From Parcubacteria group bacterium GW2011_GWA2_45_30 (GTDB lineage: Bacteria > Patescibacteriota > Minisyncoccia > Sungbacterales > HO2-52-23): a stretch of 32,728 nt of DNA. Of the stretch, positions 3,348-31,304 are shown in pieces. The translations under genes were made by a program, and so were the position numbers. The DNA lies in NCBI GenBank assembly GCA_001001625.1, contig LCKU01000002.1, positions 1-32,728 of the forward strand, in the 5' to 3' direction. Position 1 is the stretch's first letter. Each line of letters starts with the position of its first letter. The notes beneath the pieces were generated by a model. That model had not been told where the DNA came from. It saw only the letters and a list, made by a program, of their open reading frames with translations, and ran no database searches.

Positions 3348-3593
3348 TTATCTCTTAAATATCATATCTCCTTCTTTGGCGGGTGAATCAAGTTTAACCG
3401 CGACCTCATCGCCTTTTTTGCCCGCCTCAACCGGCTTCTTATCCACCTGCATTGATCCTACTGCCTGCTCAAAATCAGACGTTTTGCCTTTCACGTTAAC
3501 CGTGTCGCCGACCTTAAGCGGCGCGTCAAGTTTTATCACCGCCACTCCGATTTTATCAAAATAATGGATTATTTTACCGAGTTTTTCTTCCAT
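3348..3593 (-). CDS. Small translation elongation factor-like protein (EF-Tu domain 2-like beta-barrel)
   Basis: The 81-aa ORF (GKIIHYFDKIGVAVIKLDAPLKVGDTVNVKGKTSDFEQAVGSMQVDKKPVEAGKKGDEVAVK) matches the pattern of the ~80-90 aa proteins annotated as elongation factor-like in archaea and small-genome bacteria (from memory). Confidence 0.6.
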   Translation of the reverse strand: MEEKLGKIIHYFDKIGVAVIKLDAPLKVGDTVNVKGKTSDFEQAVGSMQVDKKPVEAGKKGDEVAVKLDSPAKEGDMIFKR

Positions 3594-5713: not shown

Positions 5714-5733
5714 TTTTTAATTCAAATAAAAAA

Positions 5734-5805
5734 TGCCCTCGGGCAGATTCGAACTGCCATTTCAGGCTTCGGAGGCCTGCGTCCTATCCATTGGACGACG
5801 AGGAC
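5734..5805 (-). tRNA. tRNA-Arg (anticodon CCG)
   Basis: Minus-strand sequence folds by hand into a cloverleaf: acceptor GTCCTCG/CGAGGGC, D-arm GTCC-AATGGATA-GGAC, anticodon arm CAGGC-CTCCGAA-GCCTG, T-arm GGCAG-TTCGAAT-CTGCC, discriminator A. 72 nt, with no encoded CCA. Confidence 0.85.
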
Positions 5806-5820
5806 ATATATTTTTCTTCA

Positions 5821-5852
5821 AGTGTAGCAAAATTTTCTCCAAACACAAAGGC
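5821..5852 (-). promoter_or_regulatory. Putative promoter of tRNA-Arg(CCG) with extended -10 TTTGC-TACACT
   Basis: The minus strand reads TTTGCTACACT about 10 nt upstream of the tRNA 5' end. It shares the TTTGCTAC(G/A)CT core with promoters at 20777-20805 and 24672-24700. The -35 is weak (TTTGTG/TTGTGT). Confidence 0.35.
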
Positions 5853-5989
5853 CTTGACTCATTGAAAAGCCAAGGCCCCCTGTTGCGCGGCTTTAACCGC
5901 GCTTATATCATATTCCACAAAGCCGCAGAAATCCCCTACTGAAAATTTTATTAAAACTTCGGAGATTCCTTTTGTGCCTTATGGAATCG

Positions 5990-6300
5990 GAAGGGGCGAT
6001 GATCCGGATCGGAGGACAAATGTGCGACCAATCCTCACATTTGTGATTCATCCTCCCACTTATGTATTCGTCACCATCTCATCAGAAAGAAAGACACTTG
6101 TGTAATTTTAGATCTTCTTCGTGAGAAAGCGTAGAAATAAGTGGGAGGACAAGTGAGTGTCTCTTTTTTGTCCTCCTATCCGGATCTCCATTTCCCGGAT
6201 TCGGGGCTCTTAAGTCCGGCATTTTCAGCCAAACACTTACCGAGGAGGGTCGGAAGTTTTAATCGGAGCCCCGAATCCGGGAAATGGAATATATTCCATA
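5990..6300. other. Non-coding region of nested long inverted repeats; candidate structured RNA(s) or MITE-like elements
   Basis: GATCCGGATCGGAGGACAAA (6001-6020) pairs with TTTGTCCTCCTATCCGGATC (6167-6186) at 19 of 20 positions. CCTCCCACTTA (6051-6061) pairs with TAAGTGGGAGG (6138-6148). A perfect 22-bp stem joins CCATTTCCCGGATTCGGGGCTC (6188-6209) and GAGCCCCGAATCCGGGAAATGG (6266-6287). There is a 16-nt palindrome, ATGGAATATATTCCAT, at 6284-6299. Only short, implausible ORFs are present. Confidence 0.6.
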
Positions 6301-6315
6301 TTATACACCGAAACG

Positions 6316-6345
6316 ATAAAAAAATCAAGCCATAAAATATGGCTT
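6316..6345 (-). terminator. Rho-independent terminator of the YkuK-like gene
   Basis: Minus strand: stem AAGCCAT/ATGGCTT (6339-6345 pairs with 6327-6333) followed by GATTTTTTTAT. Confidence 0.65.
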
Positions 6346-6374
6346 ATATATAATACTTTTATATGTCTCGTCAA

Positions 6375-6866
6375 CTATGTATGGCGGTCAGCCACCACTG
6401 ACGCCCCGAATGCATACGGCTTTATCACCGGAGTAAAATGATATCCCTTTATCATGCCAACCACCCCGTCAATCATCTCTTTGGTCGGGCCCCGCTCCCC
6501 GACATCCACGTGAATTTCGTTGCCATCCCAGAAAAACTCATCTCCCAAAATATTTTTCAGATGCGAACGGATTTCCTGCGCCAAAGTAATGGAACGGATT
6601 GCCTCCTGCCAAATACGATCGCGCATGGTCTTAAATTCTTGCGGTTCGGATTTGGTCCAAAAATGAATGGCGCCGTTTCCAACACGCCATATCGTAATGG
6701 CGGTCACGAGCGATACAGGATTATGGGAATCTGAATCCGTTCCGATAATGATTTTATAAAACCGTTTCGGATCTTTTTGCACAAATCGTTTAATCTCTAC
6801 CGCAACCCCCTCCCATCCTATTTTGCCGAATGTTTGACTATAAAATACGGTTTCTCCGATAGACAT
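6375..6866 (-). CDS. YkuK/DUF458 family RNase H-like protein
   Basis: Sequence (...FYKIIIGTDSDSHNPVSLVTAITIWRVGNGAIHFWTKS...IHVDVGERGPTKEMI...ADRHT) matches my recollection of the DUF458/YkuK family. Start is ambiguous: ATG at 6866 or TTG at 6881. Confidence 0.65.
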   Translation of the reverse strand: MSIGETVFYSQTFGKIGWEGVAVEIKRFVQKDPKRFYKIIIGTDSDSHNPVSLVTAITIWRVGNGAIHFWTKSEPQEFKTMRDRIWQEAIRSITLAQEIRSHLKNILGDEFFWDGNEIHVDVGERGPTKEMIDGVVGMIKGYHFTPVIKPYAFGASVVADRHT

Positions 6867-6906
6867 AATATCACTCGTCAATCATTTTTATTCAAAACTT
6901 CGGTCT

Positions 6907-6985
6907 GGATAAATGGAGCCGAAAATGTGACGGGATCCCTCCGGCAGAGCCGGCTTCCCTTGTCACATTTTCTCACCATTTATTC
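6907..6985. repeat. Intergenic long hairpin between the exonuclease-WYL gene and the YkuK-like gene
   Basis: AAAATGTGAC (6922-6931) pairs perfectly with GTCACATTTT (6962-6971). The outer pair GGATAAATGG/CCATTTATTC matches at 9 of 10 positions, and there is an inner CCGGC-AGA-GCCGG hairpin. It may terminate the upstream gene. Confidence 0.6.
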
Positions 6986-7053
6986 TCCGTTCCTGCGTTA
7001 ATTGAATAAAAAACGATTGACTCGCTCTTGGGGTTTGCTAAATGTATCCGCCA

Positions 7054-7875
7054 TTAAATAAAAAGTATCCCCTGCGCGTCAGTTGGAATCGCATACGTTT
7101 CGTCGGCAAGTTCCGCGCGCGCAATGCGATTCAGGCGAAACATACGAACGCCGTTGCGCAAATGGCAAAACGCCTCAATCTCGCCATTGGGCTTTATGCG
7201 ATAAACGTCAATCAGCCGTGATTTGCGAAATCCCAAGCCATCACTGTCGGCTGAAGATATATATTCAATGGCCAAACGCCGCCGATTGGAAAACGCCTCC
7301 GCCACCACATCCGTAACCGGACGCTTAATTTCCTTGCCCCAAGATACCGGAATTGAACGGATTGAGCCGTCGCGATTGGATTCAAAAAGCACATGCCCGT
7401 GCTTTTTCCCGTATTCATAAAGATCGCGCGTCAGGCGCACATCATCCAGACAATATTTTTTTACATCCTCAACTCGGCCCTCGCGAAACCACTGAAGCGC
7501 TTCCAATCCGTGTCCGGATTTGGATGCGCCCAGCGTAACTTTAGTTAATGCCTGCAACCCCACGCGATGCCCCAAGAATTTAGTCGCGTCCTCAAAAAGA
7601 TCCGAGACCGCGACCTTAGCAAAGGCGCCTTCGCGCAAATATGGCTCCATAACCGGAATGTCAAAATGATTAATATTGAAACCGATTATATGATTGCTTA
7701 CGGCAACCATCTCATCAAGTTTGGCAAGTTCGTGCTCCTCAAACGCAAAAAAGGCGTCCTGCGCATACGAATAGACGCCAGCCACCGAAATACCGAGTTC
7801 GCGAATATTACGCTCCCCCCCGACTTCGTCAAAGGTTTTTTTGGTTTCTACATCAATAACCAGAACATCGCTCAT
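7054..7875 (-). CDS. DEDDy-type 3'-5' exonuclease (RNase H-fold) fused to a C-terminal WYL-like domain
   Basis: Exo I is VIDVETKK, Exo II is IIGFNINHFDIPV, and Exo III is KKYCLDDVRLTRDLY (YxxxD). The C-terminal RRRLAIEYIS...SRLIDVYRIKPNGEIEAFCHLRNGVRMFRLNRIARAEL resembles the WYL-domain core, including the R.FRL.RI signature. Start placed at ATG 7875 (MSDVLVIDVE). Confidence 0.6.
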   Translation of the reverse strand: MSDVLVIDVETKKTFDEVGGERNIRELGISVAGVYSYAQDAFFAFEEHELAKLDEMVAVSNHIIGFNINHFDIPVMEPYLREGAFAKVAVSDLFEDATKFLGHRVGLQALTKVTLGASKSGHGLEALQWFREGRVEDVKKYCLDDVRLTRDLYEYGKKHGHVLFESNRDGSIRSIPVSWGKEIKRPVTDVVAEAFSNRRRLAIEYISSADSDGLGFRKSRLIDVYRIKPNGEIEAFCHLRNGVRMFRLNRIARAELADETYAIPTDAQGILFI

Positions 7876-7935
7876 ATAAAAATTAGTATATCTCGTCGGG
7901 CAATAAAAAACAACCCCGGCGCGGGATTGCAAAAA

Positions 7936-8286
7936 TTAAGGAACTAATTTGGTGAACCCTCCATCTTCCGCCATTACGCCAAATTCAGAGGCATGTAAAA
8001 CCCAATCGACTGCGTTATCGGCTTGAATATAAACAGACAGTCCAATATTTTTTCGCGCCCAATACCACAAGAATACGATTCCGTAATGCAACGACACATC
8101 CATGGCCGGCAATAATAATGGACTTTCTTTTGTCCCATCGCCGCTTACAAAATGATTTCCCTGTGATTGCCGTGCGAATGCACTATCGCCGGGTTCCGGA
8201 CGCAAAAAAAATTCTCCCTCACTTTTACTGAAAACATGGATGGGCGGAGCATTTTTCAAGACCTCGCTAAAAATCGGATCAGACAT
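7936..8286 (-). CDS. Hypothetical protein (116 aa)
   Basis: ORF with an ATG start directly upstream of the exonuclease-WYL gene on the same strand. No family recognised. Confidence 0.5.
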   Translation of the reverse strand: MSDPIFSEVLKNAPPIHVFSKSEGEFFLRPEPGDSAFARQSQGNHFVSGDGTKESPLLLPAMDVSLHYGIVFLWYWARKNIGLSVYIQADNAVDWVLHASEFGVMAEDGGFTKLVP

Positions 8287-8374
8287 ATATTTCTACCTCA
8301 CAAGAACTATTCGAAATATAACAAATGGTTAAAAAAATGCAAGAAAAAAAGTAGAGTGTGGCTCCACTTTACAG

Positions 8375-8530
8375 TCATTTAACTTCTCTTAATTCTTTGG
8401 GTATGGGATGCGTCCAGCCCTGTATGGTGCAGCGGTCATAATAAGCGGCCAAGTGCGCCAAGGAACCCCTGCCCTCATTCATATCTTTTTCGAGTTGTCG
8501 ACAAAACAAACTTAACGCACAGCCGCTCAT
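8375..8530 (-). CDS. Possible small protein (51 aa, MSGCALSLFCRQLEKDMNEGRGSLAHLAAYYDRCTIQGWTHPIPKELREVK)
   Basis: Hand-translated ORF below the 60-aa ORF-track cutoff, on the same strand as its neighbours. Composition is non-repetitive and no clear RBS was seen. Confidence 0.25.
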   Translation of the reverse strand: MSGCALSLFCRQLEKDMNEGRGSLAHLAAYYDRCTIQGWTHPIPKELREVK

Positions 8531-8804
8531 GACAACCCCCAAAAAAAATTACTAACGCAATAAAAAATCGTGTCTGCACTTTTTTCTCCCATAATAAATG
8601 TCCTACAAAAATCATAGCAAAACTAAATTGCCTGTCAACAAAAAATGCGCGTTAAGCGCTGCATTGTAAAAACCAGTTTAAGCGAGCTGAGATTTTTAAA
8701 TCGATGCGAGGTAATATACTCTTTCGCGAAATTGTGCAGGCGCACATGCAAATTCACGAAGCGAGGAGGAAGGGAAACCGGGGCTCCGCTCCCAAACTAC
8801 AAGA

Positions 8805-8827
8805 TCCTTCGCTTGGCTCAGGATGAC
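8805..8827 (+). repeat. Copy of the TCCTTCG(AC)TT(C)GCTCAGGAT repeat motif
   Basis: TCCTTCGCTTGGCTCAGGATGAC resembles TCCTTCGACTTCGCTCAGGAT at 19760-19780 and 24096-24116. Confidence 0.6.
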
Positions 8828-8933
8828 TTGCTTTTAAGATACGGAGCAAAAGACAGAGGCGGAGAACACGGTGGGTTTCTTCCGACGAGCGAGTAGAATT
8901 TGTCTGCGACGAAACTCTTGAGCGGAGAGTATA

Positions 8934-11059: not shown

Positions 11060-12007
11060 TCAACATGTTGATGTATTTTTGGAGATCGCTTCATCTAATT
11101 TTAAGACGATATCATCCGTTGGAAATCCATAGGTCTCGTAATCGCCAAGGGTACGCGCGGAATGAAGACCGGATACCGGATCCGCCGGATGATCGCCTTT
11201 TTCATGGAAATCCGAACCGGCAGTACGCAATAAATTATATTTAACCGCCGTGCTCTGCAAAAATTCCATATCATCTTCAGTGTGAGACGGATTAAAAACT
11301 TCAACACCCGCAAGACCCCAGTTGATCAGTTCTTTCAAAAAGTTTTCCAGCGCATCATAATCGGTTTGCGATATTGACGCCGCACCCCGCGTCTCTTTTC
11401 CCCGGAAATGAATCGCCGGATGCGACCAGACCGCTATTCCTCCGGCTCCACGAATTAAAGCAATGGCGTCTTTCGCGGAAATGTGGGTCCTTTTTACGTA
11501 ATTCGGGTTATCATCGGTTAAATATTTTGCAAAAAAATCATGCATGGTTGACGCTGCCCCTAATTTCTCTTTATTTTCCGGACGATTCATTATGGCGCGA
11601 ACCAAATGCGGACGCGCCACCAAGCCGCCCGTGGCTTCTTTCAGAACATCTTCCCATTCCACGACAAATCCTTCGTTCTTTTTTAAATTTTCCAGCATGG
11701 CGCGCGCGCCTTCAATCCTACCCTGCCTGAATTTTTCAAGTTCCTCCAAAAGGCGCTCATTCTTATAATCAACGCCATAGCCCAAAATATGGGCATTGTG
11801 TTCTTCCACCGACATCTCAATTCCAGGAATTACGCGAACCTCCATTTCTCCTCCGGCCATAAGCGCCTCGCTAACGCCGCCTATGGTGTCATGATCCGTA
11901 ATAGCAATTACTTGAAGCCCCAATTCTTGGGCCATCTTAACAATCTCGCGAGGGCTGTGCTTGCCGTCGGAGGCGGTGGATTGAATTTGTAAGTCAAATG
12001 TATTCAT
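11060..12007 (-). CDS. PHP-domain phosphoesterase (TrpH/YciV-like) with motif I changed from HxH to QxQ
   Basis: DLQIQSTASDG...AITDHDTIGG...GIEMSV..HILGYG...WSHP...GSDFH follows the PHP-domain motif order. The first HxH is replaced by QIQ. Confidence 0.7.
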   Translation of the reverse strand: MNTFDLQIQSTASDGKHSPREIVKMAQELGLQVIAITDHDTIGGVSEALMAGGEMEVRVIPGIEMSVEEHNAHILGYGVDYKNERLLEELEKFRQGRIEGARAMLENLKKNEGFVVEWEDVLKEATGGLVARPHLVRAIMNRPENKEKLGAASTMHDFFAKYLTDDNPNYVKRTHISAKDAIALIRGAGGIAVWSHPAIHFRGKETRGAASISQTDYDALENFLKELINWGLAGVEVFNPSHTEDDMEFLQSTAVKYNLLRTAGSDFHEKGDHPADPVSGLHSARTLGDYETYGFPTDDIVLKLDEAISKNTSTC

Positions 12008-12010
12008 TAT

Positions 12011-12078
12011 CTTTACGAAATGCGAATATCCGCGAATTTACGAATTCGTACATTCGTACTGATTGGTATTTCGTAAAG
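12011..12078. repeat. Intergenic hairpin containing a CGAAT repeat cluster and a 12-nt palindrome
   Basis: CTTTACGAAAT (12011-12021) pairs perfectly with ATTTCGTAAAG (12068-12078). Inside are GCGAAT-N4-GCGAAT-N2-ACGAAT and the palindrome TACGAATTCGTA (12039-12050). It fills the spacer between the archease-like stop and the PHP gene start. Confidence 0.75.
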
Positions 12079-12540
12079 TCAAACATCAAATACAAGTATT
12101 GTCTCATACATTCCCGTCGCAGGGTTCTTCTTTATATCCACTTCACTGTCGGAAATCGCTTTTATGTCATTCGCAAATTCTCCAGCTTTAAACCCCGACA
12201 AAGTGCCTTTTAAAAAATTGTCGCCAAAATCCTTAAACGATACCGCATGAAAAAGCGCGCCGTGGATATCGGATTGAGTAAGCGATTCGGATAAAAACTC
12301 AATGAGCAGTGAATTTAAATCAACTGCTTTAACCTCTATTTTCTGGCGAATTGGTTTTTCTTTCTTTTCCGCCTCCAAAATTTCCGGCTTCAAAAACGCA
12401 GCCACGCCGGAAAGCGCGTTCAAAAAAAGATCTTTAACGCTATTCCCCCATACCCGCATTCGGGTTCCGGTATCACCGCCGATTATCTCAAATCTCTGTT
12501 CCATAAGCTCATTATACACCGCCGGATGAAGAGTAAACAT
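12079..12540 (-). CDS. Archease-like protein (divergent)
   Basis: The N-terminal FEIIGGDTGTRMRVWGNSVKDLFLNA and the C-terminal IKAISDSEVDIKKNPATGMYETILVFDV resemble archease termini (FE.L.HTAD...G......LF and .KA.TYH......W.A.V..DV). The canonical HTAD is not conserved. Confidence 0.5.
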   Translation of the reverse strand: MFTLHPAVYNELMEQRFEIIGGDTGTRMRVWGNSVKDLFLNALSGVAAFLKPEILEAEKKEKPIRQKIEVKAVDLNSLLIEFLSESLTQSDIHGALFHAVSFKDFGDNFLKGTLSGFKAGEFANDIKAISDSEVDIKKNPATGMYETILVFDV

Positions 12541-22605: not shown

Positions 22606-22622
22606 TCGCTATAGCGATTTTC

Positions 22623-22752
22623 ATCCATTTAGTTTTCAGACACGACTCACGCGCTCCTACGGCGCGTTCGCTAAGGGTTGGACGAAACTTTTCCGCGTCA
22701 TTGCGGAAAACCAAGCAGTTTCGTCCTCCCATTGTCTGAAAACTAAACGGAT
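22623..22752. other. 130-nt multi-stem structured intergenic element (candidate ncRNA or MITE-like repeat)
   Basis: The 20-bp closing stem ATCCATTTAGTTTTCAGACA/TGTCTGAAAACTAAACGGAT has one mismatch. Inside are the hairpin ACGCGC-TCCTACG-GCGCGT and a perfect 10-bp stem GGACGAAACT/AGTTTCGTCC enclosing TTTCCGC-GTCATT-GCGGAAA. Confidence 0.6.
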
Positions 22753-22789
22753 TCAACCGCGTGTATACTCACTTATAAATTTTCCTTTT

Positions 22790-24700: not shown

Positions 24701-26778
24701 CCTTTCGTCTAATCTCAAAATTCAACCCCACCGGAGACCAACCAGTCGCAATCGAAAAACTTGCGGCGAATTTGGATGCCGGTATACGGCACCAAACGCT
24801 TCTCGGCGTTACCGGCTCGGGAAAAACATTCACCATGGCCAATGTGATTGAACGAGTGCAGAAACCGACTCTTGTAATTTCCCATAATAAAACTCTGGCC
24901 ATGCAGCTTTACCAGGAGTTCAAAGAATTTTTCCCGGAAAACGCGGTGCACTATTTTGTTTCCTATTACGACTACTACCAGCCCGAAGCATATATTCCCC
25001 AAACCGACACCTACATCGAAAAGGACACCAAAATCAATGAAATGATTGACGCCCTGCGCCACGCCGCCACTGCATCACTCCTTACTCGGCGCGACGTAAT
25101 CATTGTCGCCTCGGTTTCCTGCATTTACGGCCTGGGCAGTCCGGAAGAATATCAAAAAGCATCTATTGAATTAAAAATGGGCCAGAAAATTTCTCGCCGC
25201 GAATTGCTTCACAATCTTGTAATGCTCCGATACGCGCGCAACCCCATTGATCCGTGCCAAGGGCATTTCCGTACCAGAGAAAATGCTATAGAAATATATC
25301 TGCCGTCTGGAGAAAATAAAATCGCGGTGGAAATCGAAAAAGGCAGAATCACGAATTTACACGAATCAAAAACAAAAACCAACGAATCGCGAAAACTTAA
25401 TCAATTTAGAGTTTATCCGGCCAAGCACTTCGTAACCCCGCAAAACAGCTTAAATCTTGCTATATCCAATATACGGCAAGAACTAAAAGAACGCCTAGCA
25501 GAGTTAAAAAAACGCGGGAAAGTGCTGGAGGCCGCGCGCCTGCGCCAGCGCACCAATTTTGATCTGGAGATGCTTGAAAAAATCGGATACATGAACGGCA
25601 TTGAAAATTATTCCCGGCAACTGGATTTCCGCAAGTCCGGAACCCCTCCACATACGCTTATTGACTACTTCAATTACGCCTTTCAGCACAGACCGTCCGA
25701 AAACTCTAAACACCGGGTGTTTTTTCGTTCAACACCCGGTGTTGACGGACAGTTTTCGGACGGTCTGTACGTATCAAAATGGCTATGCATAATTGACGAA
25801 TCGCATGTAAGCATTCCCCAAATCCGCGGGATGTATGCCGGAGACCACTCGCGCAAAGAAACTCTGATCGAATACGGGTTCCGTCTGCCCTCGGCGCTTG
25901 ATAACCGACCACTCATGTTTAAAGAATTTAACCAAAAAGTTGAACAAATTATATACGCTTCCGCAACTCCAACTGAATATGAGTTGCAGATGAGTAAACA
26001 GTCATACAGGGATCCGATCCCTGTAACACAGGGATCGGATCCATGTATTGTGGAGCAATTAATAAGGCCCACAGGAATTTTAGACCCCAGGATCGAAGTC
26101 CGACCTACAAAAAATCAGATCCACGCTGTTATAGCCGAGATTAAAAAACGGATTGCCAAAAACGAACGCTCGCTTGTTATGGCGCTAACCAAACGCCTAG
26201 CGGAAGACATTGCAGAATACCTTGAAGAGGCGGGAATAAAAGCCAAATATCTTCATTCGGAAGTAAAAACCCTGGAGAGGCCAGAAACACTAAAAAAACT
26301 CCGCACCGGAGAACATGACGTAATTGTCGGAATCAATCTGCTGCGGGAAGGGCTTGATTTACCCGAAGTTTCTTTTATCGCCATATTGGATGCCGACAAA
26401 GAAGGATTTTTGCGAAACATTACCACGCTTTTACAAATCATAGGCCGCGCCGCGCGGCACATAGACGGGAAAGTAACTCTTTATGCTGATACCATGACCG
26501 GCTCCATGCGCGCGGCAATCAATGAAACAAACCGTCGCCGCAAAATTCAGGAAGATTATAACCGAGCACACGGCATTACACCCGCGCAGATAAAAAAAGA
26601 AATAAGAAAATCGCTTCTGGAAGAAACTGCAGCAAAAGATGAATTTCCTATGCCCGATGGCCCCACAGAAAAAATTGTAAAATCCCTGGAGCGCGAAATG
26701 AAAAAGGCGTCGCGCGAAATGAATTTTGAACTGGCCGCCAAAATACGGGATCGGATAATCAGGCAAACTGATCCATAG
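24694..26778 (+). CDS. uvrB: Excinuclease ABC subunit B (UvrB) with two in-frame palindromic insertions
   Basis: Walker A GVTGSGKTFTMA, the DESHVSIPQIRGMY motif, YGFRLPSALDNRPL, helicase C-terminal motifs and a C-terminal UVR domain (EMKKASREMNFELAAKIRDRI). Confidence 0.9.
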   Translation: MSTFRLISKFNPTGDQPVAIEKLAANLDAGIRHQTLLGVTGSGKTFTMANVIERVQKPTLVISHNKTLAMQLYQEFKEFFPENAVHYFVSYYDYYQPEAYIPQTDTYIEKDTKINEMIDALRHAATASLLTRRDVIIVASVSCIYGLGSPEEYQKASIELKMGQKISRRELLHNLVMLRYARNPIDPCQGHFRTRENAIEIYLPSGENKIAVEIEKGRITNLHESKTKTNESRKLNQFRVYPAKHFVTPQNSLNLAISNIRQELKERLAELKKRGKVLEAARLRQRTNFDLEMLEKIGYMNGIENYSRQLDFRKSGTPPHTLIDYFNYAFQHRPSENSKHRVFFRSTPGVDGQFSDGLYVSKWLCIIDESHVSIPQIRGMYAGDHSRKETLIEYGFRLPSALDNRPLMFKEFNQKVEQIIYASATPTEYELQMSKQSYRDPIPVTQGSDPCIVEQLIRPTGILDPRIEVRPTKNQIHAVIAEIKKRIAKNERSLVMALTKRLAEDIAEYLEEAGIKAKYLHSEVKTLERPETLKKLRTGEHDVIVGINLLREGLDLPEVSFIAILDADKEGFLRNITTLLQIIGRAARHIDGKVTLYADTMTGSMRAAINETNRRRKIQEDYNRAHGITPAQIKKEIRKSLLEETAAKDEFPMPDGPTEKIVKSLEREMKKASREMNFELAAKIRDRIIRQTDP
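25688..25768. repeat. 81-nt double-stem palindromic element inserted in frame in uvrB
   Basis: Perfect 18-bp outer inverted repeat (25688-25705 with 25751-25768) and perfect 13-bp inner inverted repeat (25709-21 with 25731-43). Confidence 0.85.
26010..26042. repeat. 33-nt hairpin (perfect 15-bp stem) inserted in frame in uvrB
   Basis: GGATCCGATCCCTGT (26010-26024), loop AAC, then ACAGGGATCGGATCC (26028-26042). Confidence 0.8.
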
Positions 26779-31161: not shown

Positions 31162-31197
31162 AAAAAAATAATATGAATTTCACCCCGTTAGATATAA

Positions 31198-31269
31198 TCC
31201 CCTCGGGAGGAATTGAACCTCCATCAAGGGCTTAGAAGACCCCTACTCTATCCATTGAGCTACGAGGGG
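31198..31269 (-). tRNA. tRNA-Arg (anticodon TCT)
   Basis: Hand-folded cloverleaf: acceptor CCCCTCG/CGAGGGG, D-arm GCTC-AATGGATA-GAGT, anticodon arm GGGGT-CTTCTAA-GCCCT, T-arm GGAGG-TTCAATT-CCTCC, discriminator A. It has an unusual C1-G72 pair and no encoded CCA. Confidence 0.8.
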
Positions 31270-31304
31270 GCTATACCTAACGGGGCAAGTTGAATCACGA
31301 GGGC

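Follow-up and report, generated by a model that had tools for sequence, protein, structure and literature searches.

In DnaQ (epsilon), a flexible region beyond the DEDD exonuclease core of about 180 amino acids (aa) carries a short peptide of the Qxx(L/M)xF type; the epsilon QTSMAF motif binds the beta sliding clamp, and the bacterial consensus for clamp binding is QL[SD]LF. The YkuK/DUF458 family (PF04308, COG1978) was predicted to be a relative of RNase H in 2005. MrfB of Bacillus subtilis is a Mg-dependent 3'-5' DNA exonuclease of the DEDDh type, which uses His258 and carries a C-terminal TPR domain (PMC11194089). In the WYL-domain regulator PafBC, mutation of R201 and R204 of PafC abolishes the binding of single-stranded DNA (ssDNA) (PMC11804915), and Majorek et al. 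(2014) placed YkuK among the RNase H1-like endonucleases as a single-domain family with no stated function. Neither an assigned function nor a conserved partner for YkuK/DUF458 was found in the literature consulted. Our study concerns a stretch of 32,728 nucleotides (nt) from Parcubacteria group bacterium GW2011_GWA2_45_30 (assembly GCA_001001625.1, contig LCKU01000002.1), referred to below as the window, in which two neighboring genes lie on the minus strand: one for a 273-aa exonuclease with a C-terminal WYL domain (7054..7875) and one for a 163-aa YkuK protein (6375..6866). We have classified this locus as an uncharacterised yet widespread housekeeping nuclease pair.

A conserved exonuclease-YkuK pair

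The sample comprised 55 genome loci, each representing a species, plus about ten other contigs, and it was searched with tblastn and profile hidden Markov models. In 31 of the 34 species loci that could be assessed, the exonuclease-WYL gene is directly followed by YkuK on the same strand, with 5-251 nt between the profile matches; in L001, the called genes are separated by as little as 2 nt. Eight loci whose exonuclease lacks the WYL domain are paired with YkuK as well, including the Ryanbacteria-type loci L043-L047 and L060 and the Sungbacteria-like L035. In Sungbacteria, the pair has a DUF192-peptidase gene upstream and tRNA-Arg(CCG) and a beta-CASP nuclease gene downstream. These results identify the conserved unit as a chromosomal pair, exonuclease followed by YkuK, in Sungbacteria and related bacteria with tiny genomes; in Patescibacteria the pair is operon-like and would usually be co-transcribed. 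A conserved exonuclease partner also sets the YkuK of the window apart from other YkuK/DUF458 proteins. YkuK is not found near the exonuclease in two loci where the latter is fused to a helicase (L062 and L064), and it is therefore not a general partner of this exonuclease class.

The initial annotation of this region had described a cassette of four same-strand genes in an accessory context. Four open reading frames (ORFs) do lie within 6375-8530, all of them on the minus strand, and in the direction of that strand the order is a 51/55-aa ORF, a 116-aa ORF, the exonuclease-WYL gene, YkuK, a structured non-coding region and tRNA-Arg(CCG). The four-gene cassette was rejected, as only two of the four genes are co-conserved: the exonuclease and YkuK are kept, whereas the 116-aa and 51-aa ORFs are not. 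Since neither these ORFs nor a long hairpin between the two nuclease genes are conserved, the cassette reduces to a two-gene pair between variable spacers. The accessory context did not stand either. The exonuclease is highly conserved (64-72% identity across Sungbacteria), it has core genes as neighbors, and it occupies the same syntenic position in the relatives examined, an outcome that the initial annotation, as with the lack of co-conservation of the four genes, had itself set against its proposal. The ratio of nonsynonymous to synonymous substitution rates (dN/dS) is 0.14 for the exonuclease-WYL gene, which indicates purifying selection; the faster-evolving 116-aa ORF has 0.38, compared with 0.14-0.17 for its neighbors.

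Domains of the two proteins

The exonuclease core occupies residues 1-180 of the first protein (7336..7875, minus strand). Translation was taken to start at the ATG at 7875; a longer, 292-aa ORF initiated at TTG was rejected as an over-extension, because the same methionine is the start of over 1,000 homologues that are about 272 aa long. The DVET, GFNINHFD and YCLDD motifs noticed at the outset are present, and 24 homologues of 64-72% identity all share their residues D8, E10, D72, Y141 and D145, so that the ExoI D-x-E, the ExoII D and the ExoIII Y-x3-D residues of the DEDDy subgroup are all accounted for. The RNase_H_2 profile (PF13482) gives 19.3 bits with the window exonuclease, under its cut-off of 22, and 28-42 bits with its relatives; NCBIfam gave zero matches for any of the four flagged proteins. 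In Foldseek searches, the exonuclease half of the AlphaFold2 model resembles the proofreading domains of B-family DNA polymerases, and the PHROG family annotated as 'DNA polymerase exonuclease subunit' matches the exonuclease at 1e-10.

An exhaustive search retrieved 1,686 relatives of the exonuclease at E<=0.001, counted as 50%-identity representatives. Among the best 150 of these, four architectures were recognized: the exonuclease-WYL form of about 260-275 aa, the exonuclease alone (about 180-200 aa), the exonuclease with an N-terminal extension, and the exonuclease as the C-terminal domain of helicases of about 920-1180 aa. In these helicases, DEAD, Helicase_C and WHD_HRQ1 occur together with the MrfA Zn-binding (MZB/DUF1998) domain, and the window exonuclease is 40% identical (E=6e-43), over its entire core, to the C-terminal exonuclease of such a DEAD/MZB helicase of the MrfA/YprA type. 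Judged by its sequence, the protein is thus a stand-alone DEDDy exonuclease, with predicted 3'-5' activity, from a class whose other members include fusions with MrfA/YprA repair helicases, and its nearest characterised context is DNA repair. It shares with the MrfB/YprB class, and with the exonucleases placed C-terminal to DEAD, WHD and MZB domains in the MrfA(YprA) fusions, the DnaQ fold of a 3'-5' exonuclease, and it is probably of the same RNase_H_2 type. It differs from MrfB in being DEDDy (Y141-x3-D145), in having a WYL domain, together with a Qx(S/A)LF tail, where MrfB has the TPR domain, and in having YkuK, not a helicase, as its partner. No MrfA/YprA helicase with DEAD and MZB/DUF1998 domains is encoded in the window, where UvrB and RecG are the only helicases, and none was seen among the neighbors in L001, L003 and L005. 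When the exonuclease-WYL alignment was run as a profile against the PDB, B. subtilis MrfB was not among the matches. Strict orthology with MrfB was therefore rejected on four grounds: the DEDDy site, the missing TPR domain, the lack of a nearby helicase and an MrfB structure beyond the reach of the profile.

The WYL domain follows the core at residues ~187-255 (7111..7317, minus strand). It matches PF13280 with 34.0 bits against a cut-off of 21.8, over profile positions 2-69 of 70; by sequence, this half of the protein is matched by PafC (E=9e-6) and also by PafBC. The AlphaFold2 model of the whole protein has a predicted local distance difference test (pLDDT) score of 88, and the top Foldseek matches of its WYL half are CapW (7tb5), PafBC (9fnd and 6sj9) and BrxR (7qfz), with E=3e-6 to 5e-5. 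These results confirm the C-terminal domain as a genuine WYL domain with an Sm-like beta-barrel fold, as initially proposed. R247 and R250 are invariant in the 24 homologues and align with R201 and R204 of PafC; the same fold, and the same conserved R-x-F-R-x-x-R-I arginines, are used for ssDNA binding in PafBC, DriD, CapW and BrxR. Unlike those proteins, the window protein has no helix-turn-helix (HTH) domain and no recognisable WCX domain, it has an exonuclease fused to the WYL domain, and the WYL domain is optional within the orthologous family. The missing HTH had been noticed from the start, and neither Pfam nor NCBIfam detected one; the N-terminal 180 residues are exonuclease. In this respect the protein is closer to the WYL-bearing PIF1 helicase, where WYL is likewise fused to a DNA-acting enzyme instead of an HTH. 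Literature searches on exonuclease-WYL fusions and on WYL domains in Patescibacteria found nothing specific. A natural WYL-less variant is encoded by the Sungbacteria-like L035 (6001-6640), an orthologue with a core 69% identical to that of the window which lacks the whole WYL domain and keeps both a QLSLF tail and the downstream YkuK. Because exonuclease-only orthologues are still paired with YkuK, the WYL domain is an accessory module and not the defining sensor of a system.

The WYL domain had suggested a sensor-coupled nucleic-acid degradation cassette with a role in defense or repair. WYL domains are common in defense regulators and effectors, the WYL and Cas3c-WYL models of PADLOC match this one, and the exonuclease gene adjoins a tRNA gene as well as variable spacers that hold orphan ORFs. 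However, the PADLOC matches are to the WYL domain alone, with none for YkuK, the 116-aa ORF or the 51-aa ORF; no phage or plasmid record encoding a relative was found; no integrase, toxin or defense gene is present among the annotated ORFs of the window; and the WYL domain is dispensable within the family. Because of these observations, together with the low dN/dS (0.14) of a highly conserved gene kept at a single syntenic position in the relatives examined, the pair looks like a component of housekeeping DNA maintenance and not like an anti-phage cassette. A defense role is unlikely, and we regard a WYL-sensor-coupled cassette against phages as highly improbable; the repair half of the earlier suggestion is still plausible. 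It is important to consider that a tempting annotation is corrected here, as a WYL domain beside nucleases and a tRNA gene is insufficient for calling a defense island.

The protein ends with the pentapeptide QGILF (residues 268-272 of 273; 7060..7074, minus strand), which resembles the beta-clamp-binding pattern Qx(S/A)L(F/L/I). Q268, L271 and F272 are invariant, and the family consensus of the tail is Qx(S/A)LF. The tails of close homologues end in Q-x-x-L-F or Q-x-x-L-L, with a strict Qxx[LIM][FL] end in 113 of 120. The strict ending was also found in 8 of 30 distant exonuclease-WYL representatives (35-49% identity), where shuffling of the tails predicts 0.15, and in 12 of 33 distant stand-alone exonucleases with a tail, where it predicts 0.10; none of 47 proteins that stop at the exonuclease core, helicase fusions included, has it. 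The motif is thus more than 50-fold above shuffles in the stand-alone forms, and many further proteins bear near-variants of it (xSLF, QxSLI, LTLPF). In the AlphaFold2 model the tail is poorly ordered (pLDDT 49-68). In the WYL-less L035 protein, QLSLF sits 14 residues past the core; since this tail is kept directly after the core, the ancestral layout appears as core plus tail, with the WYL domain inserted between them. We infer a resemblance to beta-clamp-binding motifs, which is the main new element of our analysis and would favor a DNA-bound, clamp-tethered enzyme. The arrangement is similar to that of DnaQ; compared with the latter, the window exonuclease is of the DEDDy, PolB-like subtype, its motif lies at the extreme C-terminus, an alpha-subunit-binding tail is not evident and clamp binding is predicted.

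The second gene of the pair, which the initial annotation had also assigned to YkuK/DUF458, encodes a clear member of this family with the predicted RNase H-like catalytic residues. It matches PF04308 with 140 bits over profile positions 2-144 of 145, and D44, E88, D121, D160 and H162 are invariant. The AlphaFold2 model has a pLDDT of 81, with D44, E88 and D121 on the confidently modelled beta1, alpha1 and beta4 elements and D160 in a C-terminal segment with pLDDT below 50. Foldseek found a weak likeness to the PIWI, UvrC C-terminal and EndoV endonuclease folds, with a PIWI domain as the best match. A sequence search of the PDB with YkuK gave chance matches alone and no YkuK structure.

Structured RNA, variable spacers and other features of the window

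Downstream of YkuK lie about 480 nt of very structured non-coding sequence on the minus strand, before tRNA-Arg(CCG) (5733..5806, minus strand), the tRNA gene mentioned in the initial annotation and a syntenic landmark of the locus. Both flanks of the four ORFs had been described as structured. This holds for the downstream spacer, 5807-6374, which folds far better than shuffled sequences (z = -13); the upstream spacer, 8543-8933, is no more structured than shuffles (z = -0.9). The downstream spacer begins with a conserved structured RNA motif of about 100 nt (6185..6289, read from 6289 to 6185 on the minus strand), composed of an outer stem of variable sequence, a conserved stem (UUCGGGGCUCU / GGGGCCCCGAA), an inner hairpin with the invariant loop ACCCUCCU (CCCUCCU), which resembles an anti-Shine-Dalgarno sequence, and a small third hairpin. 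Compensatory changes were found in 24 of 34 predicted pairs in a MAFFT alignment of 13 sequences, and the gene-sense strand was chosen by G-U pairs and covariance-model scores. Rfam contains no family for any of the spacers, at either the gathering or the E<=1 threshold.

A covariance model found the motif in 13 related loci, for example at L027 7453-7549, L031 4729-4825 and L009 5877-5973. Searching with just the RNA pattern added three metagenome contigs in which the covariance model also finds the motif, and in each of them it lies upstream of tRNA-Arg(CCG); L068 and L096 (motif at 3485-3582, minus strand) encode exonuclease-WYL and then YkuK ahead of the motif, and L128 begins at the motif. 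The scan of metagenome DNA with this pattern was too loose, as 3 of the 80 returned loci were true instances. In every motif locus that contains YkuK, the motif lies downstream of it in the same orientation, including L027 and L031, where the tRNA is inverted. The motif was undetected in about half of the Sungbacteria loci, and a functional link to the nucleases is for this reason possible but unproven; the conserved CCUCC-loop RNA might be linked to the nuclease pair.

One reading of these observations is a three-part system in which the structured RNA serves as a cofactor, guide or substrate of the PIWI/RNase H-like YkuK and the exonuclease. The orientation shared with YkuK despite an inverted tRNA, the pairs found in loci retrieved by the RNA pattern alone and the PIWI domain as best structural match of YkuK would fit it. 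The loci without a detected motif argue against it, as do several other features of the region: in L012, 54 nt separate YkuK from the tRNA downstream of it; outside Sungbacteria the motif is missing though the protein pair persists; the distance between motif and YkuK ranges from 86 to 1400 nt; and in the window a terminator-like hairpin 3' of YkuK (6326-6346, minus strand) and a promoter-like site that it overlaps (TTGATT-17-TATAAT, 6300-6328, minus strand) lie between YkuK and the motif. Such a system appears extremely improbable to us.

The remainder of the spacer (5807..6184, minus strand), between the RNA motif and the tRNA, is a further highly structured non-coding RNA or DNA (z = -8.5), and in 11 of 12 other loci the equivalent region is structured too, with z from -2.9 to -9.7. 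We observed that it contains nested long near-perfect hairpins on the minus strand, such as 6001-6020/6167-6186 and 6051-6070/6130-6149, and that the equivalent regions of related loci are structured and dissimilar in sequence. Positions 5950-5970 may also pair at long range with the interior of the motif at 6243-6263.

The spacer between the exonuclease and YkuK genes (187 nt, between 7054 and 6866, minus strand) holds the long hairpin of the initial annotation (6907..6985, minus strand), whose stability was reproduced (fold z = -4.35). It lies inside a strain-specific insertion of about 130 nt that is missing from L065, with genes 94% identical to those of the window, and from L007; no further copy was found in the window or in the collected loci. 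As a single copy missing from close relatives, the hairpin was rejected as a conserved regulatory element.

Upstream of the pair, the 116-aa orphan ORF (7936..8286, minus strand) lies outside the conserved unit and is followed by its own terminator-like hairpin and T-run at 7910-7930 (minus strand). It has two relatives alone among 5.8 billion proteins, at 97% and 83% identity. The 51/55-aa ORF (8530/8542-8375, minus strand) has a strong promoter-like site ahead of it (TTGACA-16-TATGAT, 8638-8611, minus strand) and a terminator-like hairpin after it. The 51-aa ORF is identical in the same-species contig L066, and the sister contig L065 has an unrelated 113-aa ORF in its place; it is probably not a conserved gene. 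Neither the 116-aa nor the 51-aa ORF gave a family match, or a tblastn match in 60 related loci, and with strain-level relatives only, both were rejected as components of the pair. The DUF192-peptidase and exonuclease genes are separated by a variable spot (window 7936-8933; L065 1852-3002; L003 5430-6000), where unrelated orphan ORFs are present or absent from one close relative to the next: 51 and 116 aa in the window, 113 and 116 aa in L065, and 125 aa in L003.

The names of homologues assign the source of the window to Candidatus Sungbacteria (Patescibacteria/CPR). The remaining genes of the window have core functions. They encode HisRS, RecG, UvrB, RuvA, FemAB, a Mur ligase, PFOR subunits, an acyl-CoA dehydrogenase and archease, together with a PHP protein, a DUF192-peptidase fusion and a beta-CASP nuclease. 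The usual partner of archease is the RtcB ligase; in several Sungbacteria loci the archease gene adjoins the PHP-domain gene (window 11060-12540; L003 959-2299; L005 2739-4117), and RtcB was not seen beside the two genes in these loci. A 68-nt imperfect palindrome (12011-12078, with 34-nt arms that are 76% complementary) fills the spacer between PHP and archease. Other structured elements were also found. Where the uvrB coding region passes from the UvrB interaction domain to Helicase_C, it holds two long near-perfect hairpins, 25688-25768 (18 nt at 100%) and 26004-26048 (21 nt at 95%, around a 3-nt loop). The intergenic region 22606-22789 contains nested inverted repeats (22623-22642/22733-22752 and 22673-22689/22717-22733), one arm of which includes GTCCTCCC, and may be another structured RNA. 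Finally, tRNA-Arg(TCT) (31198-31269) lies inside a 23-nt inverted repeat (87% complementary; window 31183-31285) through which the acceptor stem reaches about 15 bp further into both flanks, suggesting that the precursor forms an unusual helix.

Proposed mechanism and meaning of the pair

The identity of the domains, the invariance of the catalytic and ligand residues, and the conservation and core-genome synteny of the pair are directly established. Starting from these, we propose with moderate confidence that the protein is a clamp-tethered, ssDNA-binding repair or editing exonuclease that works with the YkuK endonuclease as a two-gene housekeeping pair of Patescibacteria. In this proposal, the exonuclease core would remove nucleotides from the 3' ends of DNA, and the C-terminal Qx(S/A)LF peptide would dock it on the beta sliding clamp. 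Where a WYL domain is present between core and tail, as in Sungbacteria and some other lineages, it may bind ssDNA, and this contact would hold or recruit the enzyme at 3' ends containing ssDNA, or gate its activity. YkuK, a predicted endonuclease of RNase H fold whose D-E-D-D/H site is intact, could supply or process a nick or an RNA-DNA junction for the exonuclease. A role on DNA is favored because the fold and PHROG matches are to proofreading exonucleases of DNA polymerases and because the closest relatives of the core are fused to repair helicases.

Several observations weigh against this proposal. First, the evidence on the partners has gaps: YkuK is not nearby in three exonuclease-WYL loci (L023, L029 and L039), its structural matches are weak (E about 3e-3), and Bacillus MrfB, a DEDDh enzyme with a TPR domain, has no detectable sequence similarity to the window exonuclease. 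Second, the clamp-like motif is a short linear pattern that could bind another partner, and its strict form occurs in only about a third of the distant representatives. Third, some features point to RNA. DEDDy enzymes include RNases such as RNase D and NrnC, WYL domains can also bind RNA, and WYL1 of Cas13d systems binds ssRNA. An NrnC profile matches the exonuclease weakly (E=0.44), and the pair adjoins tRNA genes, structured RNA and a beta-CASP nuclease.

The chief rival is accordingly RNA maturation: a DEDDy exoribonuclease similar to RNase D, RNase T or NrnC would trim the 3' ends of tRNAs or other stable RNAs, with a WYL domain that binds ssRNA and with YkuK as an endonuclease for RNA or RNA-DNA. 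In addition to the features just mentioned, it can draw on the synteny with tRNA-Arg(CCG), on a tRNA cluster in some genomes, on the conservation of the structured RNA, on the RNase-type character of the beta-CASP protein and on the grouping of YkuK with RNase H1 by Majorek et al. It accords poorly with the helicase fusions of the closest core relatives, with the likeness of fold and PHROG profile to proofreading domains and with a Qx(S/A)LF tail that fits a tether to the DNA clamp; moreover, tRNA-Arg lies on the opposite strand in L027 and L031, and its linkage is thus positional only. We consider RNA maturation rather doubtful.

Returning to the DNA repair or editing proposal, the features of the pair that are moderately novel are the optional insertion of a WYL domain, the tail resembling a clamp-binding motif and the first conserved partner of YkuK, and the candidate RNA motif is new. 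A broader interpretation, which we advance only tentatively, is that Patescibacteria possess an unrecognised housekeeping pathway of DNA editing or repair, in which a clamp-tethered DEDDy exonuclease acts with YkuK and an inserted WYL domain lets ssDNA gate or recruit the exonuclease. If the proposal is true, the conserved operon partner would give YkuK/DUF458 its first functional context and a concrete hypothesis. The WYL domain would then be an optional, insertable module of a housekeeping exonuclease and not a transcriptional or defense sensor, acting directly on the exonuclease and not through transcription. The pair would also hint at how the editing and repair of 3' ends may be organized on the sliding clamp in bacteria with very small genomes.

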